From an uncultured Pseudomonadota bacterium (GTDB taxonomy: Bacteria; Pseudomonadota; Alphaproteobacteria; RF32; CAG-239), in assembly GCA_902785935.1 (NCBI GenBank), contig CADAAN010000006.1, positions 4,309 to 68,308 on the forward strand: 64,000 nt of DNA, given 5' to 3'. Below the pieces are notes generated by a model, which was given only the letters and a program-made list of their open reading frames with translations, was not told the origin of the DNA and searched no databases. The stretch's first letter is position 1, and every line of letters begins with the position of its first letter. The translations under genes were made by a program, and so were the position numbers. Positions 16,266 to 45,986 of this stretch are shown piece after piece.

Positions 16266-17324
16266 ATGAAGAAATATGTTTGGGTTTTTGGACTTATTTT
16301 AAGTTATAATGCACAAGCTTATGATTATAATGATTGTTTTGGTGCAAGCGGATGTCAGCCCTGTCCGAATAGTACGGACGGCAAATGTTTTTATGCTGTT
16401 GAAGGCAGCAAAATGACAATTTATGGCCCGACATCAACCGAACAAAATGCAGATGGCAGCTTAAAAGAAACAACATCGATTCCGCGTTATGCCTTTACCA
16501 ACAGCGATAATGCCAGCAATTTGCCGGAAAATATCACTTCTCTTGAAATAACAGGTAATATCACAACCGTTGAAGGTTATGCTTTTTGCTCTGCCCCTCT
16601 GACAAATGTACAATTTCCTGAGACACTTGAAACAATATCGGAATTGGCTTTTTGGAACAATAATTTATCACAAATCAATTTTCCTAATTCGCTTAAAAAT
16701 ATAGAAGAAGGTGCTTTTAATTGGAATCCATTTTCAGAAATTAATTTACCCGACGGATTAATGACGCTGGAGGGGTTAACAGGTGTTCCCCTGGGGCATG
16801 TTGTTATTCCGGATTCGATTGCAGAGGTTAAAGATGCGATTTTTTCTTCAAACTATCGTTTGCAATCATTGGTTGTCGGCGCAGACACAATGCTTGGCAA
16901 TATTTTTACCTACACAACAGGGGCTGTTAGTGTGCAATTTGATAAATTCAAGATGTTTTGCGCAGAAAATAACGGCTCATGCACAACAGCTTTGCAAAGT
17001 GCCGGTGCAACACAAGAACAAATTGCGCAAATACTGATAAGTTATACAAAAGATGACGCAACAGGCGTTTATCAAACAAGTGACGGAAAATATTATGCCG
17101 ATGTCAATTTGATGGCAAGACAAATGGCTTGCGAAAATAAGCAAAGCTGTGAAATTGCCAGTGCTGATATTCGGGCAGGTCGTCCTTTTGATATGAAAGG
17201 AAAATCTTACGCATCTGTCGATGATTTCATTCAAGGAAAATATATTCCAAAGCGTATCTATACCATCGATGAAGCCAATCATGTCGCGGGCAAGACAAAC
17301 ACTTTTACGATTCGGTATCGATAG
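16266..17324 (+). CDS. secreted BspA-type leucine-rich-repeat protein with conserved C-terminal tail
   Basis: Signal peptide MKKYVWVFGLILSYNAQA; Cys-rich N-module; LRR_5-like repeats (ITSLEITGNITTVEGYAF...); C-terminus PKRIYTIDEANHVAGKTNTFTIRYR shared with 4 paralogs. Confidence 0.8.
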   Translation: MKKYVWVFGLILSYNAQAYDYNDCFGASGCQPCPNSTDGKCFYAVEGSKMTIYGPTSTEQNADGSLKETTSIPRYAFTNSDNASNLPENITSLEITGNITTVEGYAFCSAPLTNVQFPETLETISELAFWNNNLSQINFPNSLKNIEEGAFNWNPFSEINLPDGLMTLEGLTGVPLGHVVIPDSIAEVKDAIFSSNYRLQSLVVGADTMLGNIFTYTTGAVSVQFDKFKMFCAENNGSCTTALQSAGATQEQIAQILISYTKDDATGVYQTSDGKYYADVNLMARQMACENKQSCEIASADIRAGRPFDMKGKSYASVDDFIQGKYIPKRIYTIDEANHVAGKTNTFTIRYR

Positions 17325-17353
17325 AAAAAAATACATTATGAGCTTAAAACTTT

Positions 17354-17827
17354 TTAAAAAAACGGATTATAAGCCCATTGAAGCAGAGCTTGTCTTTGTT
17401 TTTTTCGGCAATCCAAGTCATACATCTGACAGTTCAAAAAAACTTGAGCTTTATGTCTTTTGAAAGCCTTCCAACGCTTGATTTGCAATTTATCAATTTC
17501 ATCAATACGGCGTCCCATATAATAGCGACAATACCACTGAAACCAACCGCGCGGATCAGGACCGATAATCCAACCGCGTTTTTGCCATTCTTGCAGGCTC
17601 ATACGTGATTTAACCCTAAAATAATTACACTCAACACACGGTTTTTCTTTGCTCAAAGGAGCATTTGTAAACCAATTTAAAGGAAATTCTTTGATGCAAT
17701 CATTTAAATAATGTCCCTCAAACACGCCGAGTTTAAGCATTTCATACGGAGTGAGCTCCGGGACAAAATCAGGTGCAAAGTCTTGTCCTTGCGGGGCGGC
17801 ATATGTATAGTGATAGCCTTTTTGCAT
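17354..17827 (-). CDS. hypothetical conserved protein
   Basis: ORF track; start trimmed to MQKGYHYTY; N-terminal extension in track looks spurious. Confidence 0.4.
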   Translation of the reverse strand: MQKGYHYTYAAPQGQDFAPDFVPELTPYEMLKLGVFEGHYLNDCIKEFPLNWFTNAPLSKEKPCVECNYFRVKSRMSLQEWQKRGWIIGPDPRGWFQWYCRYYMGRRIDEIDKLQIKRWKAFKRHKAQVFLNCQMYDLDCRKKQRQALLQWAYNPFF

Positions 17828-17944
17828 TTTATCTGAAACAACAATCATCAAGCAAAGATAATGGCGCATATTCGTTTTTTCAATAAATGCGATATAAAAA
17901 AAAGCCCCGCAAAATGCGGAGCATATCAATTTTATCAAATCAAA

Positions 17945-18187
17945 TTACATATCAAGTGCTTTTCGATATGTATCAATCAAAAATTCCTGCTCATCGCGAG
18001 AGGCAGCGTCCATCTTGCGCAATTTTAAGATGGCGCGCATAATTTTGACATCAAATCCGGCACTTTTTGCCTCAGCAAAAACCTCACGGATATCTGTTGA
18101 GATTTCTTTTTTATCTTCTTCCAATTTTTCAATTCTTTCGATAAGCGAACGCAATCTGTCGCTTGCAATACCACCGACTTCGGCCAT
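17945..18187 (-). CDS. gapR: DUF2312/UPF0335 nucleoid-associated protein (GapR-like)
   Basis: LRSLIERIEKLEEDKKEISTDIREVFAEAKSAGFDVKIMRAILKLRKMD closely matches alphaproteobacterial GapR family. Confidence 0.8.
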   Translation of the reverse strand: MAEVGGIASDRLRSLIERIEKLEEDKKEISTDIREVFAEAKSAGFDVKIMRAILKLRKMDAASRDEQEFLIDTYRKALDM

Positions 18188-18404
18188 TTTTTTCCTCCGT
18201 ATAAAATATGGTTAAACTTTTTTTCTGAGCTATGAGATAACAAAAAAAACAAAGTTTGACAAGAGATATTTTTGAATTTTTTTTTGTTTGATTGAGCTTT
18301 GAAGCATTTAAAACCAAAAATTATACCCCGCCCGTCAAATTTTGCTTGACGGGTTGTTTCTTTTTTTATACAAACCGATATATAGATAACAACGGAGAAA
18401 TATT

Positions 18405-20579
18405 TTGAAAAACTTTGTGAGATTTTGTCTGCGTACGTTCTTTTATATCTTCAAGGTCAGATGCAACATCAAGTTTGACTTGAAGAAATTGCCTAAAAAA
18501 GGTGTTTATGTTTCAAACCACGTGTCTTATTTAGACCCGATTTTGCTCTTTGCCTTTTTGCCGGGCAATCCGATTTTTGCCTTAAACGGGCATTTGTATC
18601 GTCGAAGATTTATCCGTTTTTTGATGAAAACGGCTGATATTGTGGAATTTAATCCGATTGAACCGTCTGATTTGAAGGATTTAATCAATAAGGTGAACGA
18701 TAATCGTCTTGTGGTGATTTTTGCCGAAGGACGTATCACCGAAAGCGGCGGCTTGATGAAGATTTATGAGGCGCCGGGGCTTTTGGCGGACAAAACCAAT
18801 GCACCGATTATCCCGATTTGGATTGAAGGTCCGCAATATGGTTATTTTTCAAAGACAAAAGATAAATTGCCCCACAGACCGCTTCCTAAAATGCTGATTA
18901 CGGTCGGCAATCCGAAACCCTTAAAGCTTAAAGATGAGCTTCGTCGTCAGCGTGACCACTTAAGCAATGAAGTGTATCATATTTTGACGGATATGCAGTT
19001 TTCAATTACCTACAATCCGAATATTTCGATTTTTGCACAGCTTGTCAAAACATCTAAAGTATATTCAAAAACGGGCTTTTTCTTTAAACGTCCGATGGTG
19101 ATTGAAGATATTAACCGCAAACCGATGAGCTATAAGGATTTGTTGCTCCGTGTTTATTTACTCGGTAAGTTTTTTAAGAAAAAAGCCGCGCATATGGAGC
19201 ATGTCGGCTTGATGTTGCCGAATACAATCGCGGCTGCGGCAACGTTTTTGGGGTTATCCGCGTATGAGCGAATCCCTGTCATGCTGAACTTTTCAGTAGG
19301 TGCCAAAAACCTGATTTCAATGTGCAAAACAGCGGAAGTAAAGCTTGTGATTACGTCAATCGCCTTTATTAAAACGGCAAAAATGGAGCCGGTGATTGAA
19401 GTCTTAAAATCAAATGGTATCGAGGTCTTTTATCTTGAAAGTTTGGCTAAAAAATTAGGGATTATCAGCAAATTGGGTGCCATGCTTCGTTATAAAACAA
19501 AGCGTATCCCGCACCGTCACGGCGGCAACAGAAAAGCGGCTATTTTATTTACGTCAGGCTCTGAAGGTGCTCCGAAGGCCGTTGTTTTAAGCCATGCCAA
19601 CATTATCTCTAACATCAAACAAGTTACAACGGTCGAAACAATCAATATGAAGGATTTGGTCTTTAATGCCATGCCGATGTTCCACAGCTTCGGACTGACA
19701 ATCGGTACATTGTTCCCGCTTTTAGAGGGGGGCAGGGTGTTTTTGTATCCTTCGCCGTTGCATTATCGCGTGATTGCTGAATTGATTTATGAGCTGGGTG
19801 CGACAATTTTGTTCGGGACAGATACCTTTTTCAGAGGTTATGGACGAATCGCGCATCCGTACGATTTTTATAACGTTCGGTTTATGTATGCCGGTGCTGA
19901 GGCTGTTAAACTTGATACGCGTAATTTGTTTATGGAGCGGATGGGCGTGCGCATTATGGAAGCATACGGTGTGACGGAATGTGCGCCGTTTGTGGCAGCC
20001 AACAATCACGTTTACAGTCGATTCGGCTCAATCGGCAAAATTGTGCCGGGGATTGAGTATAAGTTAGAGCCTGTGCCCGGGATTGAAAAAGGCGGAGAGC
20101 TTGTCGTTAAAGGTCCGAATATTATGATGGGCTATATCATGCCTGATAAACCCGGGGTTTTGGTACCCTTAAAAGACGGCTGGTATCATACGGGTGATGT
20201 GGTTGAAATTGATGAAATCGGCTATGTCTTTATCAAAGACCGCATCAAACGCTTTGCTAAAATCGGCGGTGAGATGGTGTCCTTAAATGCCGTACAGGAT
20301 ATGGTTATCAAGGCTTATGAATGGATGGGGCCTGACTTTAGTTATGGTATTGTTTCCGTACCGCATGAAAGCAAGGGTGAGCAAATCGTCTTGGTCACGA
20401 ACAACAATCAGGTCAAACAGGAAGTTTTGCATGACTATATCAAAAACAATGGTATGTCTGAGCTGTTTTTGCCTCGAACCATCCTGTATCATGAAAAAAT
20501 TCCGGCCTTTTTGACAGGTAAAACCGATAACGTTACCTTGAAAAAAGAAGTGATGGAAGAATTGGGCTTAAATAAATAA
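18405..20579 (+). CDS. aas: bifunctional acyltransferase / acyl-ACP synthetase (Aas paralog)
   Basis: Paralog of 9998..12169 (same motifs NHVSYLDP, FAEGRIT, FTSGSEGAPKAV, TGDVVEIDEIGY); TTG start with GGAG RBS. Confidence 0.8.
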   Translation: MKNFVRFCLRTFFYIFKVRCNIKFDLKKLPKKGVYVSNHVSYLDPILLFAFLPGNPIFALNGHLYRRRFIRFLMKTADIVEFNPIEPSDLKDLINKVNDNRLVVIFAEGRITESGGLMKIYEAPGLLADKTNAPIIPIWIEGPQYGYFSKTKDKLPHRPLPKMLITVGNPKPLKLKDELRRQRDHLSNEVYHILTDMQFSITYNPNISIFAQLVKTSKVYSKTGFFFKRPMVIEDINRKPMSYKDLLLRVYLLGKFFKKKAAHMEHVGLMLPNTIAAAATFLGLSAYERIPVMLNFSVGAKNLISMCKTAEVKLVITSIAFIKTAKMEPVIEVLKSNGIEVFYLESLAKKLGIISKLGAMLRYKTKRIPHRHGGNRKAAILFTSGSEGAPKAVVLSHANIISNIKQVTTVETINMKDLVFNAMPMFHSFGLTIGTLFPLLEGGRVFLYPSPLHYRVIAELIYELGATILFGTDTFFRGYGRIAHPYDFYNVRFMYAGAEAVKLDTRNLFMERMGVRIMEAYGVTECAPFVAANNHVYSRFGSIGKIVPGIEYKLEPVPGIEKGGELVVKGPNIMMGYIMPDKPGVLVPLKDGWYHTGDVVEIDEIGYVFIKDRIKRFAKIGGEMVSLNAVQDMVIKAYEWMGPDFSYGIVSVPHESKGEQIVLVTNNNQVKQEVLHDYIKNNGMSELFLPRTILYHEKIPAFLTGKTDNVTLKKEVMEELGLNK

Positions 20580-20593
20580 GCCCAACCTGCTTT

Positions 20594-21493
20594 TTATCTG
20601 TACCTGATTTTGACCGAATTGACTTTGCCTGCGATGGCATTTGCTTCATCGATGGTGTAGATACGCTTTGGGATATAATCTCCTTTTTGCATCGCGGAAA
20701 TTGAGGCATAAGTTTTCTCACCGATACGATATTTCCCGTCAGGTGTCTTAGAATAATGAATAATTTTCGGGTTTTTACCCGTTTGAAGCGCTATTCTTGA
20801 ACATACCTCTTCGGAAGCCGCACAATATAGTTTTTGAAGGTTTGTGTTTGTAAAAGCTTCATCATCAATATTTGTCACACTATTCGGAATAACAAGTGTT
20901 TCAAGTGTTGAAATATCAGCAAGAGACGTCCAACCGATTGAGGTTACACCTTCAGGGATTTCCAGATTTTTAAGTTTTGTTCCGACAAAAGCTCTATCAG
21001 GAATTTCTGTTTGAGCCTGCCCAAGCATCAAATAATCTATTTTTGTTGCCGCAAAACTCCAAGCACCGACATATTGAAGATTTAGAGGTGTATTAATTTC
21101 TTTTAATAAATCTGCACCCTGAAATGCAGCACCGCCAATTTGTTCAATAGAATCCGGCAAATCAATACTGCTGATTTTTGTATAAGCAAGTGTATAACTA
21201 CCGATATTGGTTAAAGAATCCGGCAATGAGACACTTCGAATAGTTTCAAGTTTTTCAACCCATGGTGTTCCCGGCCTTTGGTTTTTAGAATCCCATTCGT
21301 AATTTGTCATTTTTCCGACAGGTGCATTTTCATCTTTGGCTTCAATTGAAAAAAGACCTGTCTGCTCATTTAGTCTGGCAAGGCAATTAGCGCCGCAATC
21401 CCAACAATTGATGTTTAAATCATCACCGCAAGTATTGACTGCTTTAGCTTGAGAGCTCATTGTCAGTAAAAAAAATAAAATCCATTTTCTCAT
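20594..21493 (-). CDS. secreted BspA-type LRR protein with conserved C-terminal tail
   Basis: Signal peptide MRKWILFFLLTMSSQAKA; LRRs; C-terminus PKRIYTIDEANAIAGKVNSVKIRYR. Confidence 0.8.
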   Translation of the reverse strand: MRKWILFFLLTMSSQAKAVNTCGDDLNINCWDCGANCLARLNEQTGLFSIEAKDENAPVGKMTNYEWDSKNQRPGTPWVEKLETIRSVSLPDSLTNIGSYTLAYTKISSIDLPDSIEQIGGAAFQGADLLKEINTPLNLQYVGAWSFAATKIDYLMLGQAQTEIPDRAFVGTKLKNLEIPEGVTSIGWTSLADISTLETLVIPNSVTNIDDEAFTNTNLQKLYCAASEEVCSRIALQTGKNPKIIHYSKTPDGKYRIGEKTYASISAMQKGDYIPKRIYTIDEANAIAGKVNSVKIRYR

Positions 21494-21676
21494 ATTTTTT
21501 CTCCATTATGCAAAATAAAAAACCGTTTAAGATAAACCAAAAACGGAGGAGCTAAACGAACTGCACTAAATCAGTTAAGCTTATTCGAGGTATTAACCCT
21601 TATATCACTTACTCCTCTCTAAAGGAGTATATTTTTAGTGCAAGTGTCGTTTAAACACCGCAACCATTTTGGTTAC
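21494..21676 (-). promoter_or_regulatory. type-1 conserved 5' leader with terminator-like hairpin
   Basis: Minus-sense GTAACCAAAATGGTTGCGGTGTTTAAAC...GATATAAGG...CTCGAATAAG...AGCTCCTCCGTTTTTGGTT; promoter TTGACA-17-TTAAAT (21683..21711) puts TSS at the GTAACC; terminal hairpin ccgttt..aaacgg + T6. Confidence 0.7.
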
Positions 21677-29406: not shown

Positions 29407-30540
29407 CTAACGATATCGAATCGAGAAGGTGTTTGTTTTGCCCGCCACCTGATTCGCCTCATCGACGGTATAAATGCGCTTGCCCTCATAGCCGATAATC
29501 TTGCCATCTTCATAAATGGCCGTACTTCCATCGGCTAATTTTTTAGAGTATTTAACTGCCATAATGTCAGCAAAGTCATTCGGGTCAAGCCCTGCCGCCT
29601 CAATATTTCTTTGGCACTTAGCGACAGATCCGGCACACTGTATTTCTATGTTGCTTATATCAAGGTTATCGAAAGGAGAATAAATTCTGTCATAACTAAA
29701 AAATACTTCACAGCTATCCATTTCATATGTACAGCCGGCTTCTAAAGCTTTACTATAAAGTTGTGTATAATCTTCTTCGCTCATATGGCTACGGTTATTT
29801 TCTACATTTTCTAAGCTGTAAAAATCATCTTCTATCACATATCTGCTGAATGCAAAATTAAAATCATCTGATACTGTGATTCTTTCAAGATTTTTAATAC
29901 CCTTAAAAGCACCTTCATCAATATACTCAACCGAATCTGGCAATGTAAGGCTTATCAAACCTGACATACCCATAAAAGCATCTCTCTCTATATTTGTAAC
30001 CGAATCCGGAATAGTAAGATTAGTAACGTTTCTCATATACGCAAATGCAGTATCTTCAATATTTTTCAGTGAATTTGGTAAAGTTAAATTTGTAACAGCA
30101 GTAACATCATAAAATGCACCGCTACCGATATCTTCCACCGCATTACCGATTGTTAAATTTGTTACGTTAATCATATTACTAAAAGCACGATCACCAATAG
30201 AAACCACAGAATCTGAAATTTCAATGGATGTAGCATTTGTAGCTTCTCTAAAAGCATTATTTCCAATTGTCGTTATACCTTTTTCTACAACAACAGAGGT
30301 GATATCTTCGCGAATAGCATGCCATGGCATACTGTAATGATACCAACCAGAATAATTCTTATTTTCAAAATCATCCATAGCACCAGTGCCGGAAATAGTC
30401 AAAATACCGCTATCCGTATCCAAGCTCCAATAGCAATTCTCGCCGCATTTTTTGTAGCCGCTGTTTGTACCAATAATATCTGCTTTGACGCCTGAGGATA
30501 ACAAAATAAATCCCATCATCAGAATACATTTATTTTTCAT
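29407..30540 (-). CDS. secreted BspA-type LRR protein with conserved C-terminal tail
   Basis: Signal peptide MKNKCILMMGFILLSSGVKA; ~8 LRR_5 repeats (VTNLTIGNAVEDIGSGAF...); C-terminus KRIYTVDEANQVAGKTNTFSIRYR. Confidence 0.85.
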   Translation of the reverse strand: MKNKCILMMGFILLSSGVKADIIGTNSGYKKCGENCYWSLDTDSGILTISGTGAMDDFENKNYSGWYHYSMPWHAIREDITSVVVEKGITTIGNNAFREATNATSIEISDSVVSIGDRAFSNMINVTNLTIGNAVEDIGSGAFYDVTAVTNLTLPNSLKNIEDTAFAYMRNVTNLTIPDSVTNIERDAFMGMSGLISLTLPDSVEYIDEGAFKGIKNLERITVSDDFNFAFSRYVIEDDFYSLENVENNRSHMSEEDYTQLYSKALEAGCTYEMDSCEVFFSYDRIYSPFDNLDISNIEIQCAGSVAKCQRNIEAAGLDPNDFADIMAVKYSKKLADGSTAIYEDGKIIGYEGKRIYTVDEANQVAGKTNTFSIRYR

Positions 30541-30828
30541 AATTTTTTCCCTTTTAAAGATGTTAATATAAAAAAGTTTAACCGCGCCTTTTTAAGTGCG
30601 GCGGGGAGTGAAGAAATCATGTAAACCTAAATGACTCTTGCAACCTTTAGAATAACTCTTGTACATCCTTTGCAAGCTCCCCAACCAAAACTTTGGGGAT
30701 AATCGGCATTTTATACAAAAACACCTTCAAAACAAACAGTGTTATCCGTCACTGAGGTTTACAAAAGCTTCTTCAAAGCTCCGCACCCAATACATAGGCA
30801 CTAAATGATAAGATTTCTCCCATCACTT
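30541..30828 (-). promoter_or_regulatory. type-2 conserved 5' leader (long structured RNA ending in attenuator hairpin)
   Basis: ~85% identical to 41674..41952 and 61231..61513; promoter TTGACA-17-TCTAAT (30836..30864); 3' end forms ccccgccgcac-ttaaaaa-ggcgcgg hairpin + T-rich run ~40 nt before ATG. Confidence 0.7.
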
Positions 30829-30946: not shown

Positions 30947-32410
30947 ATGAATTTTATCAAAAAATATCCGTTTCAAATTTTTTTAAGCCTGCATTTTTTG
31001 CTTTGGAGCTTTTTACCCCTTTTGCGCAAAAGCCTGCCGATGGACAGTATTGAAGCTGTCGTGTGGGGGATGTATTGCGATTTCGGTACAAACAAACATC
31101 CGCCTTTATCGGGTTGGCTTGCCGATTTTGTTTATAACATCATCGGTTTTGAACAGCCCCTTGCCATTTATATGTTAAGTCAGCTTTGTGTGCTTTTGGG
31201 ATTTATTTATATTTATCGTTTGGCACGTGAATTTATCTCTAAAGAGCGTGCAACATTTGCCGTAATGGTGCTTGCCGGCGTGATTTATTATGGTTTCAGC
31301 GCGATTGAATATAATGTCAACGTGGTATCCTTGGCTTTGTGGCCGATGACGGCCTTTTACTTTTACAAGGCCTTAGATGAAGACAAGCTTACGGATTGGG
31401 TTTTAACGGGGCTTTTTGCGGGGCTTAATCTGTTCAATAAATACACAAGCGGTATTTTGCTTTTTTCTATGGGCGTGATGATGCTTTTTGATAAAAAAGC
31501 ACGCAAACATCTGACAAGCTATAAGCCTTATGTCTGTGCACTTGTATGTACAATAACGATTTTGCCGCATCTTTTGTGGCTTATTGATCATCAGTTTTTT
31601 TCGCTCGGCTATTTTATAGGCCGTGGCTCAAAGGGCGGATTTGACAACTTTCCGCTCTTAAAGCATATTGTTTATCCCATAAAATTTATCGGGGCGCAGT
31701 TGCTTTTCGGTCTTGGCGCATTTTTGGTTTATTTTACGGCATATTACAAGCAAAAACGCTTTGATGTGAAGGCAAACCGTTTTCAAAAAAACTTTTTATT
31801 TTTTCTGGGGTTGATGCCTGTTTTATTAATGACGCTGATAAGCTTTGTTTTCGGCTTAAAGCTCAAAAGCATGTGGGGATTTCCGTGTTATTATCTTGCG
31901 GGCGTAATGCTTTTTGTGTTTTTTCCATGCAAATTAACAAGCGTGTTTAAAAAAAGGATGTATATCGGCGTCTATGCGATGCTCTTTTTGCTCTTTTTTG
32001 CGCAGGGGTGTGTCATTTTGTTTAACAAAAGCGATAAATTTCACTTAAATCAGCAGGCCTACGGGCAAATGCTTGAAGATTTGTGGCACAAAAAATACGG
32101 CCGTTTTGATTTTGCTTATGTCGCAGGCGATGTTTGGTGGGCAGACAATGCCGCACTTTTTGCTCCATCAAGGCCAAAGCCGCTGATTTGGGGTGATATC
32201 AAACAAAATCCGTGGCTTGATGAACATGATATCAATGATAAAGGCGCCTTGGTTGTGACAAGTGACAAGTTTGAATATGATGATATCAAAAATAAGCTCA
32301 AATTTGTTTCAAAGCCTGAGATTTTGGAAATTGTGGTCACAAACAGACTTGGCAAAATCAAGAAAAAAACACTTTATTATGGTTTTTATAACGTTTACGG
32401 AGAAAGATAA
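30947..32410 (+). CDS. ArnT/PMT-family (GT39/GT83) membrane glycosyltransferase
   Basis: 487-aa polytopic membrane protein with N-terminal ArnT-like topology; sits beside an ArnC-like GT2 and a YdjC deacetylase. Confidence 0.6.
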   Translation: MNFIKKYPFQIFLSLHFLLWSFLPLLRKSLPMDSIEAVVWGMYCDFGTNKHPPLSGWLADFVYNIIGFEQPLAIYMLSQLCVLLGFIYIYRLAREFISKERATFAVMVLAGVIYYGFSAIEYNVNVVSLALWPMTAFYFYKALDEDKLTDWVLTGLFAGLNLFNKYTSGILLFSMGVMMLFDKKARKHLTSYKPYVCALVCTITILPHLLWLIDHQFFSLGYFIGRGSKGGFDNFPLLKHIVYPIKFIGAQLLFGLGAFLVYFTAYYKQKRFDVKANRFQKNFLFFLGLMPVLLMTLISFVFGLKLKSMWGFPCYYLAGVMLFVFFPCKLTSVFKKRMYIGVYAMLFLLFFAQGCVILFNKSDKFHLNQQAYGQMLEDLWHKKYGRFDFAYVAGDVWWADNAALFAPSRPKPLIWGDIKQNPWLDEHDINDKGALVVTSDKFEYDDIKNKLKFVSKPEILEIVVTNRLGKIKKKTLYYGFYNVYGER

Positions 32411-33364
32411 ATGAAAAAAGTCAGTATTGTAATTTCGGCTTATAACGAAGAAGGCAATATCGAAAAATTGTATCAGGAACTTGATAAAGAACTCAAAAAA
32501 ATCGAAAAGGTTGGCTTTGAGATTTTGTTTGTCAATGATGGTAGCAAAGACACTACATTTTTTAAAATACAAAATTTGGTCGATAAAGACAACCGCGTTA
32601 AAATGGTCAACTTAAAACGCAATTTCGGCCATGAAATTGCCATGACGGCCGGTATGGACTATGCCAAAGGCGATGCCGTGATTTTTATGGATGCCGATTT
32701 GCAACATCCTCCGCTTTATATCCCCGAGATGGTCAAAGCGTGGCAGGAAGGTTATGAAATTGTTTTGACAAAGCGGGTAGACAATGTTGCCACCTCACGA
32801 TTTTATAAATTCTGCGCCAAGACATTTTATTTTATCTTAAACCTGCTTTCTGAAACAAAAATTGGCGAAAGTATGCCCGATTTCAGATTAATTGATCGTA
32901 AATATGTCGATTTTTTAAAGGGTTTTAATGAGCAAGACAGGCTTTTCAGAGGATTGCTCAGTTGGATTATGCCCAATGACAAGGTCAAAATTATTGATTT
33001 TGTCGCACCCGAAAGATTTAGCGGTACAACAAAATATAATTTTTTCAAAAGCTTAAAACTTGCGATTGACAGCATTACACAATTTTCGGTCAGGCCGCTT
33101 CATTTAGCGACATACTTCGGTTTTTTAGGCGCAGCATGTTCTGTTTTGCTCGGACTGTATGTGATTTTTGAGCATTTTATCGAGCATAATCCGACCCCCG
33201 GATACGCTACGATTGTTTGCGTCGTCGGATTTGTCGGCGCGGTACAGCTCATCACACTCGGGATTATCGGTGAGTATATCGGCAAAATCCATATTGAAGT
33301 CAAAAAGCGCCCGCTCTATTTGGCTGATTTAATTGAACAAAAAGACAAGAACGATGACAAATAA
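32411..33364 (+). CDS. polyprenyl-phosphate glycosyltransferase, GT2 (ArnC/DPM1-like)
   Basis: VSIVISAYNEEGNI, NDGSKDTT, MDADLQHPP (DXD region), two C-terminal TM helices. Confidence 0.8.
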   Translation: MKKVSIVISAYNEEGNIEKLYQELDKELKKIEKVGFEILFVNDGSKDTTFFKIQNLVDKDNRVKMVNLKRNFGHEIAMTAGMDYAKGDAVIFMDADLQHPPLYIPEMVKAWQEGYEIVLTKRVDNVATSRFYKFCAKTFYFILNLLSETKIGESMPDFRLIDRKYVDFLKGFNEQDRLFRGLLSWIMPNDKVKIIDFVAPERFSGTTKYNFFKSLKLAIDSITQFSVRPLHLATYFGFLGAACSVLLGLYVIFEHFIEHNPTPGYATIVCVVGFVGAVQLITLGIIGEYIGKIHIEVKKRPLYLADLIEQKDKNDDK

Positions 33365-34628
33365 AGTGATTTTCAATGCCGATGATTTCGGTATTTCAAA
33401 AGGCGTCAATGCCGCGATTAAAAAAGCATATGATGAAGGCATATTAAATGCCGCAAGCTTGATGGTTGGCCAAAAATATGCAAAAGAGGCTGTTGAACTT
33501 TCCAAAGAGATGAAAGATTTAGACTTAGGCTTGCACGTCAATTTAACAAACGAATATCCTGTTTCAAAGGCTCAAAATTTATCTTTACTGACGGGCGAAG
33601 ACGGTAAATTTAAGAACGGATTTGTTAAGCTTTTATGGCTCTCGATTTTCAAGCCGAAAGCCTTGCGAGATGAAGTTTATGCTGAAACAGAGGCTCAAAT
33701 ATTAAAAGCTCAAGAAATGGGGGTTCGGCTCACGCACATTGACAGCCACCGCCATGTGCATATGATACCTCTAATTTTTAAGGTTATGCTTGAATTAAAA
33801 GAAAAATACCACATCAAGCGCATACGTGTTATCAATGAATGTGCCTTTTTGACAATGAAGACAAATGCCTCAAAGTCTTATCTTTTTGACGGCGGTTTGA
33901 TTAAGTATTGTCTTTTGCGTTTTTTTGCCGTACTGAACGGATATGCTTCAAAAACCTATTTTTATACCATGCTCTACACCTGCAAGCTTTCTCAAGAACA
34001 TTTCAAAAAAGTTTTGGTCCCCGCTTGTTTTGATGATGTTGAAGTTATGATTCATCCCTCCATCACGGATATTGACAAGCCTTGCAAAGAGGATATTTTT
34101 GATGAAAGTGTGATTTCGCCGTGGCGTGAGGCAGAATTGGCAACTTTGCTTGATAAATCACTTGTCAAAAATTTTGAATTTAATGCAAAATATCCCTATC
34201 TTTACAGGCTTTATTTCAAAGTCGAGCACTTGTGGTTTAAATTTGTTCCCGAAAAATTGCGTTATTTGCTTGTGGGCGGATTTAACACGGTATTTGCATA
34301 TTTGGTTTTTGTGCTTTTGCTTCAAATCCTAAAGATGCCGTATCTTTTGGCTTTAACCGTTCAATATTTTATCACGGTTAATGTTTCAATCGCAACGATG
34401 CGTTATTACGTCTTTCAAAGCAAGGGTGATATCATCAAAGAATTTATCAAAGCGTGGGGCGTATACATTGGTGTGTTTTTGCTCAATTCCGTCGGTCTGT
34501 CGTTTTTGGTTGAAGTATGCAAAATCGAACCTGTTTGGGCTCAGGCAATTTATCTGATTTTTTCAACGATTTTGACATATATTTTGCACAAATATTTTTC
34601 TTTTCACAAAAAAATTAAGCAAAAATAA
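33354..34628 (+). CDS. YdjC-family carbohydrate deacetylase fused to GtrA-like membrane domain
   Basis: N-terminus VIFNADDFGISKGVNAAI...HIDSHRHVH (YdjC motifs); C-terminal 4-TM GtrA-like module LRYLLVGGFNTVFAYLVFVLLL. Confidence 0.7.
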   Translation: MTNKVIFNADDFGISKGVNAAIKKAYDEGILNAASLMVGQKYAKEAVELSKEMKDLDLGLHVNLTNEYPVSKAQNLSLLTGEDGKFKNGFVKLLWLSIFKPKALRDEVYAETEAQILKAQEMGVRLTHIDSHRHVHMIPLIFKVMLELKEKYHIKRIRVINECAFLTMKTNASKSYLFDGGLIKYCLLRFFAVLNGYASKTYFYTMLYTCKLSQEHFKKVLVPACFDDVEVMIHPSITDIDKPCKEDIFDESVISPWREAELATLLDKSLVKNFEFNAKYPYLYRLYFKVEHLWFKFVPEKLRYLLVGGFNTVFAYLVFVLLLQILKMPYLLALTVQYFITVNVSIATMRYYVFQSKGDIIKEFIKAWGVYIGVFLLNSVGLSFLVEVCKIEPVWAQAIYLIFSTILTYILHKYFSFHKKIKQK

Positions 34629-38122: not shown

Positions 38123-39226
38123 ATGGCCGGATTTTTTAAAAAACATCTCAAAAATTCTTCGGCGATGAAAAAAAACGCTCCGGCGCCGCATTATGCCGCC
38201 ATCGATTTGGGAACAAACTCTTGTCGTTTGGTGATTGCAACCCCGACCCCGACGTCTTTTCATGTCGTTGAAACTTTTTCGAAAATTACACGCTTGGGTG
38301 AAGGAATTATTAAGGACAATCAACTTTCAAAAGCGGCCATGCGTCGCACGGTCAATACATTAAAAGTCTGTCACAGCGTCATGAGTGAATATGCCCCGAT
38401 TGAAAGCTCGCGTTTTGTTGCAACGGCAGCCTGCAGACGCGCCAAAAATATTGATGAATTTTTAAATATGGTACATAAAGAAGCCGGCATCAATCTGGAA
38501 ATTATTTCACCTAAAGAAGAATCGCGGCTGGCAGTTGTCGGTTGTGTGCCGCTTTTAAACAGGAACATTAAACGCGCATTGATTTTTGATATCGGCGGCG
38601 GTTCGACGGAAATTTCGCTTGCACGCATTACCGAAGACGGCAAAACCTTTATTGAAGGGTATGTGTCTTTGCCTTATGGTGTCGTAACAATTTCAGAAGC
38701 TTTTCCAAATCAGGAAATGACAAGCCTTGCCTATAATACGATTATTGAGCGTACGCAAAATATCTTATCTGAATTTGATGCCAAACACCATATTTTTGAT
38801 GCGATTGAAAATCAAGAAATTCAGGTCATCGGCACATCAGGGACAGTCACGGTTTTGGGTGCGGTGCATTTGGGACTTTCAAGATATAACCGTTCTGCGG
38901 TTGACGGCCTGTCAATTTCAAGGGTGGATATCGAAAATGTCATCAACAAAATCAAAAATATGGGAGATGCCGGCCGGCGCAAGCATCGGTGCATCGGCCC
39001 GTCAAAAGCTGATTTGACAATTTCGGGTTGTGCAATCATTGAAGCTTTGATGACAAGCTTTCCGATATCAGAAATTACGATTGCCGACAGAGGCATCCGT
39101 GAAGGTATTTTGCTTGATATGATTCATAACAAAAAACATCACCAAAAGCCGTTTAAGAAACACTTTAGAAAATATCCGTATTTTAAGAGAAAGAAAAATA
39201 ATGAAAAAAAATATAGCGAGCATTGA
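38123..39226 (+). CDS. Ppx/GppA-family phosphatase
   Basis: AAIDLGTNSCRLVIA, FDIGGGSTEISL actin-like fold motifs; start may be internal ATG 38165. Confidence 0.7.
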   Translation: MAGFFKKHLKNSSAMKKNAPAPHYAAIDLGTNSCRLVIATPTPTSFHVVETFSKITRLGEGIIKDNQLSKAAMRRTVNTLKVCHSVMSEYAPIESSRFVATAACRRAKNIDEFLNMVHKEAGINLEIISPKEESRLAVVGCVPLLNRNIKRALIFDIGGGSTEISLARITEDGKTFIEGYVSLPYGVVTISEAFPNQEMTSLAYNTIIERTQNILSEFDAKHHIFDAIENQEIQVIGTSGTVTVLGAVHLGLSRYNRSAVDGLSISRVDIENVINKIKNMGDAGRRKHRCIGPSKADLTISGCAIIEALMTSFPISEITIADRGIREGILLDMIHNKKHHQKPFKKHFRKYPYFKRKKNNEKKYSEH

Positions 39227-40130
39227 TTTAGGATCCAATTCTTGTCGTTTGCGCATTGCAAATGAAAAAGGTGAAGTGCTTTATATGGATTCAAAACCCA
39301 CAATGCTCGGTCAGGGACTTCACAAAACGGGAATACTGAGCGAAGAATCATTCATGCGCGGGCAGAAAGCTTTGAGCGAATTTGCCTGTTTGATGAAAAA
39401 ATATGATGTCAAATCATATCGCGCCATCACGACAGAAGCCTGCAGATCAGCTTTAAACGGCTCTGATTTTATCCGTATGATTGAAAAAGAAACGGGTATT
39501 GTGCTTGAAATAATTGATGCCAAAGAAGAGGCGCGTCTGAATTTAAAAGGAGCAAGCCTCAATGCCCCGAAAGACAAAGAATATATCGCCCTTTATGATT
39601 TGGGCGGTGCTTCGACGGAAATTTCCCTGAGTAAAAATGACGGCAAGTGTCAAATTTTGCACACCGTTTCTATCCCTTGGGGCGCACGCAACGCAGCAGA
39701 AGCATATTGCTTGCGTGAATTTTCGCAGAAACAAGCTCACCGTTTAAGCACGGACATCAAAAAATATGTCGATGATTTTATGAAAAAATGTGATTTTGAA
39801 AAATATCGCGATAAATGCTGTTTGCTTGCAACCTCAAGCACACCTCTTCGCCTTTGCGCCATGGTCAAAAACGACGGAGAATATTCAAGAGACAAAAATG
39901 ACGGTGCATGCGTTATGTGCTTTGATTTTGATAAAGCAATTGATGCGGTGTGCCACATGGATTTACATCAAAGACAGCAATCCGCCTATATCGGCGAGGA
40001 TCGAGCGCCGATTTTTATTGCCGCCGGAATTATTTTTCAGACAATATACAAACAGCTTGGTTTTAATCAGATGATTGTATCATTTAAAGGTGCTCAAGAT
40101 GCGATTATAGAGGAGTTATGCCATGGCTAA
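39201..40130 (+). CDS. Ppx/GppA-family phosphatase (tandem paralog)
   Basis: IASIDLGSNSCRLRIA, YDLGGASTEISL. Confidence 0.7.
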   Translation: MKKNIASIDLGSNSCRLRIANEKGEVLYMDSKPTMLGQGLHKTGILSEESFMRGQKALSEFACLMKKYDVKSYRAITTEACRSALNGSDFIRMIEKETGIVLEIIDAKEEARLNLKGASLNAPKDKEYIALYDLGGASTEISLSKNDGKCQILHTVSIPWGARNAAEAYCLREFSQKQAHRLSTDIKKYVDDFMKKCDFEKYRDKCCLLATSSTPLRLCAMVKNDGEYSRDKNDGACVMCFDFDKAIDAVCHMDLHQRQQSAYIGEDRAPIFIAAGIIFQTIYKQLGFNQMIVSFKGAQDAIIEELCHG

Positions 40131-40812: not shown

Positions 40813-40815
40813 AAC

Positions 40816-41673
40816 TTAGCGATACCGAATCGAAAAAGTGTTTGTCTTGCCTGCAACTTGATTGGCCTCATCGATGGTGTAAATGCGCTTTGGTGCGTAA
40901 TGTTGATTGTAAATATCATTTGGGGAACTGTAAAACCTTCCGTTATAATAATAACCTGTTGAGTATTTTTGATAAAATTTAATTTTATCGCCAATTTCTT
41001 CATCGTCTAAAAGAGCCTGACAACTGGCATTTGTGTCTTCGCAATAAATAGCCAAAGATTCTGACAATGCTTTATTTATGGAATTAGTAAGCATTTTTTT
41101 TGTAATCATGGTCGAACCGGATATGGTTAAAGATTTCAATTCCGTGCCGCCTAATGTCCAATCTTCATCTTCAAGAATAACATCTTTGGGTAATACAATA
41201 TCTTCAACTTTTGTACGATTAAAATTAGCCCCTCCGATAAAAGTCAGACTATTTGGTAAATTAATTTTTTCAAGTGATTGAGTATCATTAAAAGCACCAC
41301 CCGAAATCTTTTGAAGTCCTTCGGGTAAAACAGCCTCTCGCAAATCAAACAAATATTCAAAAGCAGAAGAACCAATTGATTTAAATATTTTATCACTTGA
41401 TTCGTTTTCGATAACGACTTTATAAATTTGTGAAGAATAGGCTCCCCAATCGGCTGTATTATGGCACCATGGGTCACAGCTGTGACTATAATTTTTCATA
41501 TCACCATAACCTTTAATGGTTAATGTATTCGTGTTTTTATCAAGTGTTGCTGTACAACTATCATTTGAGGTTGCCGCACAGTCAAATGTACAAATATCAC
41601 TGTTATCACAAAGTGTATCAGCATATGTATTAAAAGCCGTAAATATACAAAAAATATAAATTACTTTTCTCAT
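40816..41673 (-). CDS. secreted LRR-family protein with conserved C-terminal tail
   Basis: True start MRKVIYIFCIFTAFNTYA (signal peptide) at 41673 with GGAG RBS; track ORF extends spuriously into leader; C-terminus PKRIYTIDEANQVAGKTNTFSIRYR. Confidence 0.8.
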   Translation of the reverse strand: MRKVIYIFCIFTAFNTYADTLCDNSDICTFDCAATSNDSCTATLDKNTNTLTIKGYGDMKNYSHSCDPWCHNTADWGAYSSQIYKVVIENESSDKIFKSIGSSAFEYLFDLREAVLPEGLQKISGGAFNDTQSLEKINLPNSLTFIGGANFNRTKVEDIVLPKDVILEDEDWTLGGTELKSLTISGSTMITKKMLTNSINKALSESLAIYCEDTNASCQALLDDEEIGDKIKFYQKYSTGYYYNGRFYSSPNDIYNQHYAPKRIYTIDEANQVAGKTNTFSIRYR

Positions 41674-41952
41674 ATCTTTTCTCCAAAATTTATTAAACGA
41701 AAAAACCACTCTAAAATGAGCGGCGGGGAGTAAAAGAATCATGTAATGGAAAATGACTTCCGTAACCTTTAGGTCAAAACCTTGAACATACGCCACGGAC
41801 TCCCCAACCAAAATATCGGGGATAAGCATTGTTTTAAAATAAAAAAACAACACTAAAACAGCGTTATCTCTCACTGTCCATTACAAAAGCTCTTTTAAAG
41901 CCCCGCACCCTTTTCGGGTACTTGATAGAAAAAGCCAAAACCTTCCTATCTG
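41674..41952 (-). promoter_or_regulatory. type-2 conserved 5' leader with attenuator hairpin
   Basis: Promoter TTGACA-17-AATAAT (41959..41987); conserved blocks identical to other two copies; terminal hairpin ccgctc-atttta-gagtgg + T6. Confidence 0.7.
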
Positions 41953-42027
41953 ATTTATATTATTACATATCAAAAACATCTTGTCAAGAAATTTTAAAAT
42001 ATTTTAATACGTGATTTGGCTGTGAAC

Positions 42028-42214: not shown

Positions 42215-42741
42215 ACTTTTTCTACTTGAGAAAATTCTAATTCCACCGGCGTGTAACGCCCGAAAATGGAAACTGAAACTTTAAGACGCGTCTTTTCTGT
42301 GTCTACTTCTTCGACAACACCGACGAAGGAGGCAAACGGACCATCTGTCACACGAACATTTTCACCGATTTCAAAGGTGGCCACAACTTCAGGACGCTCA
42401 ACACCTTCCTGCATTTGCTTTAAGATGTGATCAACCTCTTTATCGCTGATCGGCTGAGGTTTGTTGCGGCTACCCAAAAATCCGCTGACACGAGGCGTAT
42501 TTTTCACGACATGCCAAACATCATCGGACATTTCCATTTTCACTAAGATATAGCCGGGGAAAAACTTGCGCTCTGAAGCAACTTTTTTGCCTTTTTTGAC
42601 CTCAACGACATCTTCGGTCGGTACCAAGACGTCTAAAATGCGATCTTCCATCTTTTTAATGACAGCCTGTTCTTTTAAAGAATCGGCAACTTTTTTTTCA
42701 GAACCGGAATAAACATTTATCACATACCAACGAGCACTCAT
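42208..42741 (-). CDS. nusG: transcription termination/antitermination factor NusG
   Basis: NGN domain WYVINVYSGSEKKV, KOW motif; follows secE. Confidence 0.9.
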   Translation of the reverse strand: MSARWYVINVYSGSEKKVADSLKEQAVIKKMEDRILDVLVPTEDVVEVKKGKKVASERKFFPGYILVKMEMSDDVWHVVKNTPRVSGFLGSRNKPQPISDKEVDHILKQMQEGVERPEVVATFEIGENVRVTDGPFASFVGVVEEVDTEKTRLKVSVSIFGRYTPVELEFSQVEKVK

Positions 42742-42743
42742 CG

Positions 42744-42938
42744 TTACACCCCTAAACCTAAAATAAGTTTAACAACCCAAGCCAAGACAACATCAACCGC
42801 AAAGAAAAAAATCGCCGCAAGCGTCACAATAAACAGAACAACAGTCGTGACCTGCGTAACCTCTTTCTTTGAAGGCCAAGTGATTTTTTTCACCTCTTGG
42901 CGAACTTGTCTGAAAAACTGTATCGGACTGACTTTCAA
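42744..42938 (-). CDS. secE: preprotein translocase subunit SecE
   Basis: 64 aa, single TM, KVSPIQFFRQVRQEVKKITWPSKKE. Confidence 0.85.
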   Translation of the reverse strand: MKVSPIQFFRQVRQEVKKITWPSKKEVTQVTTVVLFIVTLAAIFFFAVDVVLAWVVKLILGLGV

Positions 42939-42981
42939 GTTATAATCCTTTTTGTTAAATCATGAAACACAATGGAAAAAG

Positions 42982-43057
42982 TGGCAGGGGCGGCAGGACT
43001 TGAACCCACGACACTCGGTTTTGGAGACCGATGTTCTACCAACTGAACTACGCCCCT
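42982..43057 (-). tRNA. trnW: tRNA-Trp (CCA)
   Basis: 76-nt cloverleaf on minus strand AGGGGCGTAGTTCAGTTGGTAGAAC...CT-CCA-AA...GGTTCAAGTCCTGCCGCCCCTGCCA; upstream of secE-nusG as usual. Confidence 0.9.
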
Positions 43058-43151
43058 AATAATTCTCCATCAAACAATTTTTCTTATTGATACACACATC
43101 TTCTTATAAAATCAAGCATTTTTTTTATCTGTGTGCACGTTTTTTATTTTT

Positions 43152-44969: not shown

Positions 44970-45038
44970 CGTTTTATCCTTTTTAAAAATTTCGACGTAC
45001 AATACCGCATTTTTTTTTAAATTCAAGTTTTTTTTACA

Positions 45039-45072
45039 AAAAAAAGAGGCTTTTTGTGATAAAAGCCTCTTC
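45039..45072 (-). terminator. intrinsic terminator after surface-protein gene 45087..45986
   Basis: aagaggcttttatcacaaaaagcctctt hairpin + T8 on minus strand. Confidence 0.6.
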
Positions 45073-45086
45073 TGTCCGAAATATCT

Positions 45087-45986
45087 TTATCGATACCTTA
45101 TTTTGAAAGAATTAACCTTGCCCGCGACGGCATTCGCCTCGTCGATGGTATAAATGCGGATATCGGCACGAGCAGGAACAGATGGCAAGACAGATGGAGA
45201 AACAGTTCCTGATGCTGAAGCAATTTTTGCTCTGCAAGAAGTCTCCGTTTCGCAACCCTCTTCCGTTCCTCCCAACATCATTTTTGCTGCTGAAGAGTAA
45301 TAATTATCACCAACTTTATATACCCCATCTTCTTTAGTATATTGTTCAATTTTTGACGTCCCATGGCCTTTACAAATATTAACATCTTCGCAAAAAAGTT
45401 TTGTGTTGCTGGCAAACGGAAAGTTAACAATTGTTGTTCCTCTGCTAATAATGACATTGTTCAAGGATTCATTTTGAAAGCTACTTCCAAAAGCATCCTG
45501 ATTAATTTTCGTTACACCGCTTAAATCAATATCATGCAGGTTGGTTGTATATGTAAAAGCGCCACTTCCAATTTCTTTAACTCCTGTAAAATCCACACTC
45601 GACAAAGCAGATCGCGAAAAAGCGGTTCCGCCGATTGATGTAACACCGCTTGCAAAAGCAAGTGAGGTTACACCTTGAGGAAGCATTGATGTCCCATAAG
45701 TGTCATCTGCAAAAGCTGATCTCGGTACTTTGTATGTGAGATTGCCGTTTGAATCTGTTGAAGTAATTGATGACCCCTGAATGGTCATTTTTCCGTTATC
45801 AATAGTGTAGTATGTGAGCATATGAGAGGCATAGCTACTGGCTTGCGACAAACATCCTTCGCCATAAGTTGAAACACAAGCCTGACAAAATGTGTTCCCT
45901 TCAGGGCACTCAATTAAAGCAATGGAAATTTTTGAAAATGAAACTGTTGCTACTAATGCCGAGGTTAAAAAAATATTTCTAGTCAT
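45087..45986 (-). CDS. secreted surface protein, member of the conserved-C-tail family
   Basis: Signal peptide MTRNIFLTSALVATVSFS; Cys-rich N-module, degenerate LRR-like repeats; C-terminus RIYTIDEANAVAGKVNSFKIRYR. Confidence 0.75.
   Translation of the reverse strand: MTRNIFLTSALVATVSFSKISIALIECPEGNTFCQACVSTYGEGCLSQASSYASHMLTYYTIDNGKMTIQGSSITSTDSNGNLTYKVPRSAFADDTYGTSMLPQGVTSLAFASGVTSIGGTAFSRSALSSVDFTGVKEIGSGAFTYTTNLHDIDLSGVTKINQDAFGSSFQNESLNNVIISRGTTIVNFPFASNTKLFCEDVNICKGHGTSKIEQYTKEDGVYKVGDNYYSSAAKMMLGGTEEGCETETSCRAKIASASGTVSPSVLPSVPARADIRIYTIDEANAVAGKVNSFKIRYR

Follow-up and report, generated by a model that had tools for sequence, protein, structure and literature searches.

A 23-residue C-terminal tail and a structured leader RNA mark an expanded family of exported leucine-rich repeat proteins in ruminant-gut Alphaproteobacteria

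We analyzed a 64-kb stretch of DNA (the window, meaning the whole stretch throughout) that sits inside an 89-kb cattle-rumen metagenome scaffold, with a focus on five genes of one family that lie within 30 kb of it and whose predicted products end in a nearly identical peptide, hereafter called the tail. An original prediction, made from the sequence alone, had put forward these five open reading frames (ORFs) and the C-terminal tail that they share. All five were present at the coordinates given, with translations as described, and the tail was found on each of them as 23 amino acids (aa) abutting the stop codon. The five genes are listed below.

16266-17324, plus strand: family member 1, with a signal peptide, a Cys-rich cap, an LRR_5 body and a C-terminal module; tail at 17253-17321, stop codon at 17322-17324
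20594-21493, minus strand: family member 2; tail at 20597-20665; a syntenic ortholog lies in the metagenome-assembled genome (MAG) RUG11221 (L009:90-986)
29407-30540, minus strand: family member 3; tail at 29410-29478
40816-41673, minus strand: family member 4; tail at 40819-40887, ATG start at 41673
45087-45986, minus strand: family member 5; tail at 45090-45158

The window tails read R-I-Y-T-[IV]-D-E-A-N-x-[VI]-A-G-K-[TV]-N-[TS]-[FV]-x-I-R-Y-R and are directly followed by the stop codon (5/5), and a six-frame scan of the window returned exactly these five copies and no further one. Among the five proteins, whose identity over the whole length is just 27 to 32%, 16 of the 23 tail positions do not vary. 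Each of the proteins matches the Pfam family LRR_5 (PF13306, leucine-rich repeats [LRR] of the BspA type) with a score between 42 and 170 bits (gathering cutoff, 27.7), and each begins with a Sec-type signal peptide, as judged by inspection and a crude score of hydrophobicity and charge, followed by a Cys-rich cap.

We then looked into the distribution of the tail. An exhaustive search with a profile hidden Markov model of the tail over 1.84 billion representatives (clusters at 50% identity) yielded 604 matching clusters at an E value of ≤1e-3, 274 of which were matched at ≤1e-10. The match reached the last residue in 150/150 of the best clusters of the 604, and the tail was strictly C-terminal in all 68 tail-bearing ORFs derived from genomes (68/68). 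The recurrence of the tail is therefore not a matter of chance. An LRR_5 body was present in 131 of the 132 tail bearers that we scanned, with no other recurring domain. The view of these proteins as secreted held up across the family, since the crude score called a Sec signal peptide in 45/46 of the complete genome-derived members, and also in 112/125 of the metagenome-derived members that start with Met. A scan of GTDB with one genome per species found the tail in four MAGs only, all of them Alphaproteobacteria from ruminants, and at least 57 copies were counted in RUG11221. Paralogs lacking the tail were essentially absent, the exceptions being truncations at contig ends and one 162-aa fragment. 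These data show that the tail is the constant end of one expanded, lineage-specific family of Sec-exported BspA-type LRR proteins and not a tag on diverse cargo, and that the hosts are uncultured ruminant-gut Alphaproteobacteria. The host of the window itself carries alphaproteobacterial markers, namely, a CcrM-like methylase with a RAMA domain, GapR, and a BipA whose closest relatives are found in gut Alphaproteobacteria MAGs (the closest named one being "Acetobacter sp. 46_36," 88%), and it may belong to the order RF32. An NCBI protein with 94% identity, from an Alphaproteobacteria MAG, is annotated only as a "leucine-rich repeat domain-containing protein."

The proteins are 250 to 400 aa long, filled by the LRR body, and are laid out as a signal peptide, a Cys-rich cap, 4 to 8 LRR_5 repeats, a Cys-containing C-cap, one or two hairpin-helix units (G-K-x-Y-x-S-x-x-D-x-x-x-G) and the tail. 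Over the family, the tail consensus is [KR]-R-I-Y-T-I-D-E-A-N-x-V-A-G-x-x-N-x-[VF]-x-I-[RK]-Y-[RK]-COOH. In a logo of 161 tails, the most conserved positions, counted from the C terminus, are Tyr(-2) (161/161), Asn(-8) (160/161), Ile(-4) (155/161) and Gly(-11) (139/161); 160 tails end in Arg or Lys and the remaining one in His, and hydrophobic residues alternate at positions -6, -4 and -2. The conserved unit had been described as 23 to 25 aa long, and the tail of this size is real, but conservation extends further upstream, over a G-K-x-Y-x-S-x-x-D-[IL]-x-x-G-x-Y-x-x-[KR] segment and a Y-C...C cap. In many members (e.g., P0020-P0022) the hairpin-helix unit, in the form G-K-x-Y-x-[ST]-x-x-D-x-x-x-G, is duplicated, with a Cys pair between the copies, and the first half of the tail (K-R-I-Y-T-I-D-E-A-N-x-V-A-G) resembles another copy of it. 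In member 1, for instance, the whole C-terminal module spans positions 17067-17321 (plus strand). A single non-LRR tail bearer was seen, which hints at some modularity: the metagenome gene that follows the leader at L064:2107-2230 (see below for leaders) encodes a signal peptide and a divergent tail (KRIYTVKEAT...VSLKYK), with no LRR_5 match.

An AlphaFold2 (AF2) model of member 1, built from an alignment of 132 sequences, had a mean predicted local distance difference test (pLDDT) score of 89.8, with values above 90 in the body and values falling from 73 to 55 along the tail, where a short helix (DEANxV, to DEANxVAG) is predicted to be followed by coil. A separate AF2 model of the 85-aa C-terminal module, predicted to consist of helices and short hairpins, gave a similar picture; across both models the pLDDT of the tail was 55 to 77, and in neither was the tail docked on the body. 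When the full model was submitted to Foldseek, only LRR_5 bodies were retrieved (PcpA, 4cp6; TpLRR, 6mlx; and Bacteroides LRR proteins), and the best match of the isolated 85-aa module in the PDB had an E value of 0.25. In Pfam and NCBIfam (E ≤ 1), the five proteins matched LRR-type families only, with the tail left uncovered, and the sole match of the tail profile among PDB sequences, the N terminus of ribosomal protein L1 (E, ~0.1), is at the level of chance. The tail, which the original prediction did not recognize, thus matches none of the C-terminal sorting or anchoring families known from Pfam, NCBIfam or the PDB. Our literature searches turned up no earlier account of the tail or of the leader RNA described below, nor of any BspA-like family from rumen Alphaproteobacteria.

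Several known C-terminal signals were considered and rejected. For cargo of the type IX secretion system (T9SS), there was no match to a family of its C-terminal domain (CTD) in Pfam or NCBIfam at E ≤ 1, no predicted beta-sandwich, and the host is alphaproteobacterial. Autotransporters (type V) require a barrel domain of at least ~250 aa, for which proteins of 250 to 400 aa have no room beside the LRR body, and neither an autotransporter Pfam match nor a barrel in the AF2 model was found. Sortase, exosortase and rhombosortase signals (LPXTG, PEP-CTERM, and GlyGly-CTERM) are ruled out by a logo devoid of any hydrophobic stretch and by the lack of a match to the NCBIfam sorting signals. Covalent anchoring likewise finds no support, as the tail has neither a sortase- or exosortase-type motif nor a hydrophobic helix. 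The canonical beta-signal of outer membrane proteins (OMPs) does not fit a last residue that is basic in 160/161 tails rather than aromatic, with Tyr at -2, on LRR solenoids that are not barrels. Type I secretion of the repeats-in-toxin (RTX) kind is rejected in view of the Sec signal peptides (5/5 in the window and 45/46 of the genome-derived members) and of the absence of RTX matches. Lastly, the invariant Asn residues do not form an N-glycosylation sequon, since N(-15)-x-V and N(-8)-x-[VF] in the logo have no Ser or Thr at +2.

We then asked on which level the tail is conserved. Tail DNA had been reported as ~85% identical between copies and as more conserved than the rest of the gene. The pair quoted is indeed identical at 0.87, but the ten window pairs span 0.59 to 0.87, with a mean of 0.74, which is only modestly above the 0.64 to 0.69 obtained with gapped alignments of the bodies. 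Pairwise, the window tails differ at a proportion of synonymous sites (pS) of 0.42 to 0.99, near saturation, and at a proportion of nonsynonymous sites (pN) of 0.02 to 0.23, so that the differences are almost all synonymous and the conservation lies in the peptide, not in the DNA. In RUG11221, 21 tails of one peptide type have a pS of 0.73 and a pN of 0.065, and no two of them are identical in DNA, which demonstrates that selection keeps the peptide and argues against recent homogenization. Family-wide, pairwise identity reaches 62% in the tail versus 30% in the mature body.

The variable positions of the tail are specific to each genome, with the types AGEKNRVSIKYR, AGKTNTFSIRYR and KPTGNTFKIRYK. 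The corresponding endings are as follows.

RUG11221 (21/57 copies): AG[ED]KNRVSI[KR]YR
Window (5 copies): AGK[TV]N[TS][FV]xIRYR
RGIG5118 (3 copies): K[KP][TQ]GN[TI]F[RK][IL]RYK

The syntenic orthologs 20594-21493 (member 2) and L009:90-986, located at the same site in the two genomes, illustrate how such types may be maintained. Their bodies share 88% aa identity (pS, 0.18; pN, 0.058). Over the last 12 codons, five amino acids are switched to the type of the host genome, and 5/7 of the codons for conserved residues carry synonymous changes (pS of the patch, ~1.1). A short patch with a history unlike that of the body points to conversion from a paralog. In a second, likely ortholog pair, each member also bears the tail type of its own genome. 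By these comparisons, the tail follows the genome rather than the individual gene, as expected of a peptide that fits one genome-encoded partner. Gene conversion had been named beforehand as an explanation that would speak against a functional signal. We did find at least one short patch of it, on top of clear functional constraint, and the functional interpretation is left standing; as the sole cause of the conservation, gene conversion is ruled out by a pN far below pS and by longest exact DNA runs of 8 to 18 nucleotides (nt) between window tails.

The conserved region is not limited to the coding sequence. About 200 nt upstream of all five window tail genes are conserved, as they are in 44/51 family genes across genomes, at 72 to 87% DNA identity. 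In the order of transcription, this region comprises a TG-extended sigma70-like promoter (TTGAC[AT]-17-xATAAT), a leader RNA starting near GUAACC, and, 20 to 60 nt before the ribosome-binding site, an intrinsic terminator with a T-run. The leaders fall into two classes: type A has a core of ~127 nt and type B, which contains extra hairpins, is ~210 nt long.

16039-16236, plus strand: upstream of member 1; promoter 16039-16067, type A core 16075-16201 (127.8 bits), terminator and T-run 16202-16236
21510-21676, minus strand: upstream of member 2; type A core 21548-21676 (116.4 bits), terminator-like stem and T-run
30583-30788, minus strand: upstream of member 3; type B leader
41700-41987, minus strand: upstream of member 4; promoter 41959-41987, type B leader 41700-41916, terminator 41705-41724
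46028-46212, minus strand: upstream of member 5; promoter 46184-46212, type A core 46051-46177 (117.4 bits), terminator 46028-46050

Member 4 starts with the ATG at 41673. The longer ORF, which begins with GTG at 41874, overlaps the type B leader. This mechanical call (40816-41874, minus strand) is one of two in the window that are too long; the other is that of trigger factor, whose GTG start at 50133 overlaps a tRNA-Leu gene (50127-50211, plus strand) and whose Trigger_N domain begins at residue 33.

Both leader classes share one architecture: a long-range helix closes the structure, one long helix is hypervariable, and there are internal hairpins as well as conserved sequences at the junctions (GAUAUAAG, CGAAUAAG and CUG...CAGUU in type A; GUAUGUACAGG, CUAAAGG and AGUCAUU...UGAUU in type B). 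The structure is supported by covariation. Eighteen of the 36 pairs of type A show compensatory changes, with 153 double-change cells versus 48 expected, and 96.1% of the cells are paired, compared to 77.7% in shuffles (0/500 of which reach the observed value) and 34 to 49% when the partner strand is slid. For type B, compensatory changes were seen in 29 of 47 pairs. A scan of the whole window against the 4,227 Rfam families at the gathering threshold returned two tRNAs only, with no match in the leaders, and a permissive scan of two leaders (E ≤ 10) gave matches only at E ≥ 0.4, far below gathering scores. A covariance model identified 24 type A leaders in the window and the GTDB loci and 46 more in metagenome contigs of the Joint Genome Institute (JGI), and nhmmer identified 33 type B leaders, for a total of ~100 copies in genomes and metagenomes.

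The leaders are closely associated with the family: 44 complete tail genes lie downstream of them in genomes, and in metagenome loci the tail was present on 26/26 of the complete genes that follow. The exceptions, leaders not followed by a tail gene, are two type IVb pilin loci of the window, one LRR fragment, and one 687-aa protein (L016:2296-4356, minus strand; type A leader at L016:4419-4544, minus strand), which has no signal peptide, tail or Pfam match and is the sole gene outside the family and the pilins that we found after a type A leader. The pilin loci of the window are given here.

52253-52843, minus strand: type IVb pilin-like gene; type A leader 52898-53026 (122.3 bits), promoter 53033-53061; no tail
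60649-61230 (Pfam PilS and Bundlin) and 59995-60609, minus strand: tandem type IVb pilin genes; type B leader 61260-61476

The pilin-like paralogs, three in the window and one at L008:7505-8134, are encoded by dispersed genes and have the prepilin motif G/RSMVEMLGVLAI and matches to Pfam PilS and Bundlin. No pilus assembly gene lies beside them in the window or in L008.

Taken together, these features make the leader a strong candidate for a new, riboswitch-like family of cis-regulatory RNAs, as judged from sequence and covariation. Among the hallmarks of riboswitches, it displays a covariation-supported structure and, in the 5' untranslated region downstream of a promoter, an expression platform with an intrinsic terminator. 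In constrained folds, base pairing is possible between the conserved 5' segment AACCAAAAUGG and the terminator's 5' arm, which makes this segment a candidate antiterminator. We propose that the shared leader would gate the whole family and the type IVb pilin genes by transcription attenuation; a protein-dependent antiterminator and a small-molecule riboswitch are equally possible.

The tail genes of the window are solo units amid housekeeping genes, with a divergent upstream neighbor in 4/5 cases. Genes in their surroundings encode MlaE, LptC/A, LptB, IleRS, the CcrM-like methylase, Ppx/GppA, RlmE, NusG, BipA, GAPDH and PGK. The Ppx/GppA phosphatases are overlapping tandem paralogs (38123-39226 and 39201-40130, plus strand), in an arrangement that is kept in a related MAG (L029:2799-4800). 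Two paralogous genes, at 9998-12169 (minus strand) and 18405-20579 (plus strand), encode an acyltransferase and an AMP-binding domain (Aas-like). The second one is convergent with the tail gene 20594-21493 (member 2), and this arrangement is syntenic in RUG11221 (L009). Divergent from the tail gene 29407-30540 (member 3) lies a cluster at 30947-34628 (plus strand) that encodes a PMT_2 protein (ArnT or protein mannosyltransferase-like), a glycosyltransferase of family 2 (GT2) and a YdjC-GtrA fusion, and whose products could glycosylate lipid A or proteins in the periplasm. Positions 1-9552 form a block of low GC content (30 to 35% versus ~40% elsewhere) that ends at a tyrosine integrase (8395-9552) and holds AbiEi antitoxin-like, pentapeptide/helix-turn-helix, Hsp70-like, glycosyltransferase and ATP-grasp genes; it is probably an integrated element.

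With moderate confidence, we propose that the tail is a common docking or sorting handle on many LRR heads, recognized by one conserved envelope partner for export or attachment. The proteins would be exported by Sec and would then fold in the periplasm in a disulfide-dependent manner, leaving the tail exposed and flexible. A single conserved component of the envelope would recognize it, be it an export machine or a receptor located at the surface or in the outer membrane. Recognition would probably consist in the addition of the terminal amphipathic strand (hydrophobic at -6, -4 and -2, with a basic end and a free carboxylate) to a beta-sheet of the partner, and many different LRR heads would thereby share a single route to the surface. 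If the partner is encoded once per genome, selection would keep the variable tail positions matched to it, and tail variants could pass between paralogs by occasional short-patch gene conversion. The suggestion, in the original prediction, of a sorting or secretion signal is thus retained in part: the tail is an unrecognized, selected C-terminal element of secreted proteins, but it is nearly exclusive to one family and not a modular tag, and its role in sorting is what we infer from the patterns above.

Several points weigh against this proposal. The signal peptides were called heuristically, by inspection and the crude score. A co-conserved processing or secretion gene, which had been envisaged, is not linked to the family: all-against-all clustering of 411 ORFs around ~60 tail genes revealed no recurrent neighbor family, be it a partner, a protease or a secretion gene, and no secretion or protease gene adjoins the tail genes in the window, from which it follows that the partner, if any, is encoded elsewhere. 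The tail is nearly confined to one protein family (131/132 with LRR_5), when a general sorting signal is expected on diverse cargo; this would also fit a structural or oligomerization element specific to the family. The low AF2 confidence of the tail would also be expected for a segment engaged in homo-oligomerization or strand swapping. Finally, the genome-specific variants could partly reflect lineage-specific expansion and conversion in the absence of any partner.

The main alternative, which we regard as possible though rather unlikely, is that the tail is a structural element intrinsic to the family, such as a C-terminal oligomerization or strand-swap peptide or the last hairpin-helix repeat, which would link the LRR proteins as dimers, trimers or mixed multimers, and serves no sorting machine. 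It would explain why LRR_5 proteins are nearly the sole bearers and why the first half of the tail is like the preceding unit, which is itself duplicated in many members. Monomer models score low on segments that fold only in oligomers, and hetero-oligomerization among paralogs would also give genome-wide concerted variants of the tail. Two points are less easily accommodated, namely, the existence of one non-LRR bearer (L064) and the nature of the invariant positions, which for the most part hold polar residues (T, D, E, N, N, and K/R) and fit specific recognition better than a simple hydrophobic zipper.

We also considered that the tail may be an export or docking signal for a type IVb pilus system, by analogy with TcpF and CofJ, whose disordered terminal peptides attach to the trimer of minor pilins at the pilus tip, but at the C terminus and on dozens of cargo proteins. 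In Vibrio cholerae, TcpF is exported by means of a disordered segment at one terminus, in which a Tyr is critical; this signal binds the minor pilin TcpB and is system-specific (PMC10120004, PMC9565799, PMC6048534). The tail resembles it as a flexible terminal peptide with an invariant Tyr on Sec-exported proteins, and the system specificity of the TcpF signal has a parallel in the genome-specific tail variants. Both classes of leader RNA precede type IVb pilin genes as well as tail genes, which suggests one regulon, and one metagenome protein (L070, gene after the leader at 767-890) even fuses a prepilin-like N terminus (GQSMAEMLGILA), an LRR body and the tail. However, the known export signals of type IVb pili are N-terminal, and each of them has just one exoprotein to serve, whose gene belongs to the pilus operon. 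Near the pilins and the tail genes, we saw no minor pilin, no secretin and no assembly ATPase, and the case for coregulation is made by the shared leaders alone. We consider this explanation unlikely. We are just as doubtful of the most ambitious form of the docking proposal, in which the tail would be a new Gram-negative sorting signal that serves more than 50 paralogous LRR heads per genome through one machine, in its most specific version by loading on, or secretion through, a type IVb pilus, which would widen the one-cargo TcpF/CofJ model to an entire cargo family, within a regulon switched by a hitherto undescribed two-class riboswitch superfamily.

It seems very unlikely that the tail directs translocation from the C terminus through a secretion system of type IV (VirB/D4-like; T4SS) or type I (T1SS), by which the LRR proteins would be delivered to a eukaryotic host, for example a rumen protist, or released to the medium. 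Both ends of the tail are positively charged (K-K-R... and ...[RK]-Y-[RK]), T4SS signals of Alphaproteobacteria include positively charged C-terminal tails (PMC6509941), and expansions of BspA-like LRR proteins are typical of host-associated microbes (PMC2843621). Against this, the family has Sec signal peptides and Cys-rich caps, features that imply folding in the periplasm and that T1SS substrates and most T4SS substrates lack, and no T4SS or T1SS gene was seen in ~670 kb of related sequence, which was surveyed by ORF clustering and not by exhaustive annotation. Least probable of all is that the tail has no role as a peptide and is conserved as a by-product of recombination through conserved leader and tail flanks that shuffles a variable middle, as in antigenic variation: the conserved gene ends, the diverged middle and the one clear patch over the last 12 codons (pS of ~1.1 versus 0.18 in the body) are in its favor, but amino acids are invariant at near-saturated synonymous sites, exact runs between window tails do not exceed 18 nt (range, 8 to 18), the 21 same-peptide copies of one genome include no identical DNA tails, and the paralogs, although scattered, are stable and in synteny across species.

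As a docking or sorting handle, the tail would represent a new route, outside Bacteroidota, by which a large and variable repertoire of binding proteins is placed on or outside the surface of a diderm, and the partner would add a new component to the known envelope machinery. The size of the family (604 clusters, at least 57 copies in one MAG, and five genes within 30 kb) and its confinement to ruminant-gut Alphaproteobacteria suggest that it probably has a central role in adhesion, whether to feed particles, to other microbes, to protists or to surfaces of the host. Of the two features, the leader RNA may be the more important one, as an orphan riboswitch or antiterminator candidate with ~100 natural variants at hand. 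In addition, the IYTIDEAN peptide and the covariance model of the leader provide markers with which to detect and quantify the surface repertoire of this lineage in metagenomes, metatranscriptomes and metaproteomes.

The leader is comparable to terminating riboswitches that precede adhesin and pilus genes, such as the cyclic di-GMP (c-di-GMP) classes, with which it shares a multihelix covarying structure, conserved junctions, an intrinsic terminator and surface protein or pilin genes downstream. It differs from the c-di-GMP classes in that it has no Rfam match, occurs as two sequence classes with one architecture, and is present as a separate copy before each paralog.

As to the tail, several known systems offer points of comparison. 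The T9SS CTD is a conserved C-terminal element on diverse Sec-exported surface proteins that is recognized by one machine (PMC4804311). It is an Ig-like beta-sandwich of ~70 to 100 aa, found on many unrelated cargo families and in Bacteroidota only, whereas the tail has 23 aa, is predicted as a short helix and a terminal strand, and belongs essentially to one family in an alphaproteobacterium. The export signals of TcpF and of CofJ from enterotoxigenic Escherichia coli (ETEC) are likewise Tyr-bearing terminal peptides on Sec-exported proteins and are system-specific, the flexibility of the tail being predicted here by two models. TcpF and CofJ are coexpressed with a type IVb pilus. Their signals are, in contrast, N-terminal (PMC10120004), with one cargo encoded in the pilus operon, whereas the tail is C-terminal, is encoded by dozens of dispersed genes and is tied to pilins solely via the leader RNA. 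With the OMP beta-signal and the C termini of pilins, the tail has in common alternating hydrophobic residues at the extreme C terminus and a conserved Tyr near the end. The OMP beta-signal, which is read by BAM, and the C termini of chaperone-usher pilins are recognized by beta-strand addition and through the free carboxylate. Unlike the OMP beta-signal, the tail ends in Arg or Lys, has a Gly spacing off the consensus, and is found on soluble LRR solenoids rather than on barrels or pilins.

The closest relatives in overall design are surface proteins of the BspA/TpLRR type, i.e., BspA of Tannerella forsythia, PcpA of pneumococci (4cp6) and TpLRR of Treponema pallidum (6mlx), which have the same LRR_5 body by sequence and fold. 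BspA and PcpA also combine a variable LRR head with a separate C-terminal module that determines localization, a T9SS CTD in BspA and choline-binding repeats in PcpA. In the family described here, the host is alphaproteobacterial, the C-terminal module is unrelated to these and tiny (a 23-aa tail within a module of at most 85 aa), at least 57 copies occur in one genome and a structured leader RNA precedes each. A conserved C-terminal module on variable surface proteins is a known kind of design, here realized with a sequence that had not been described.

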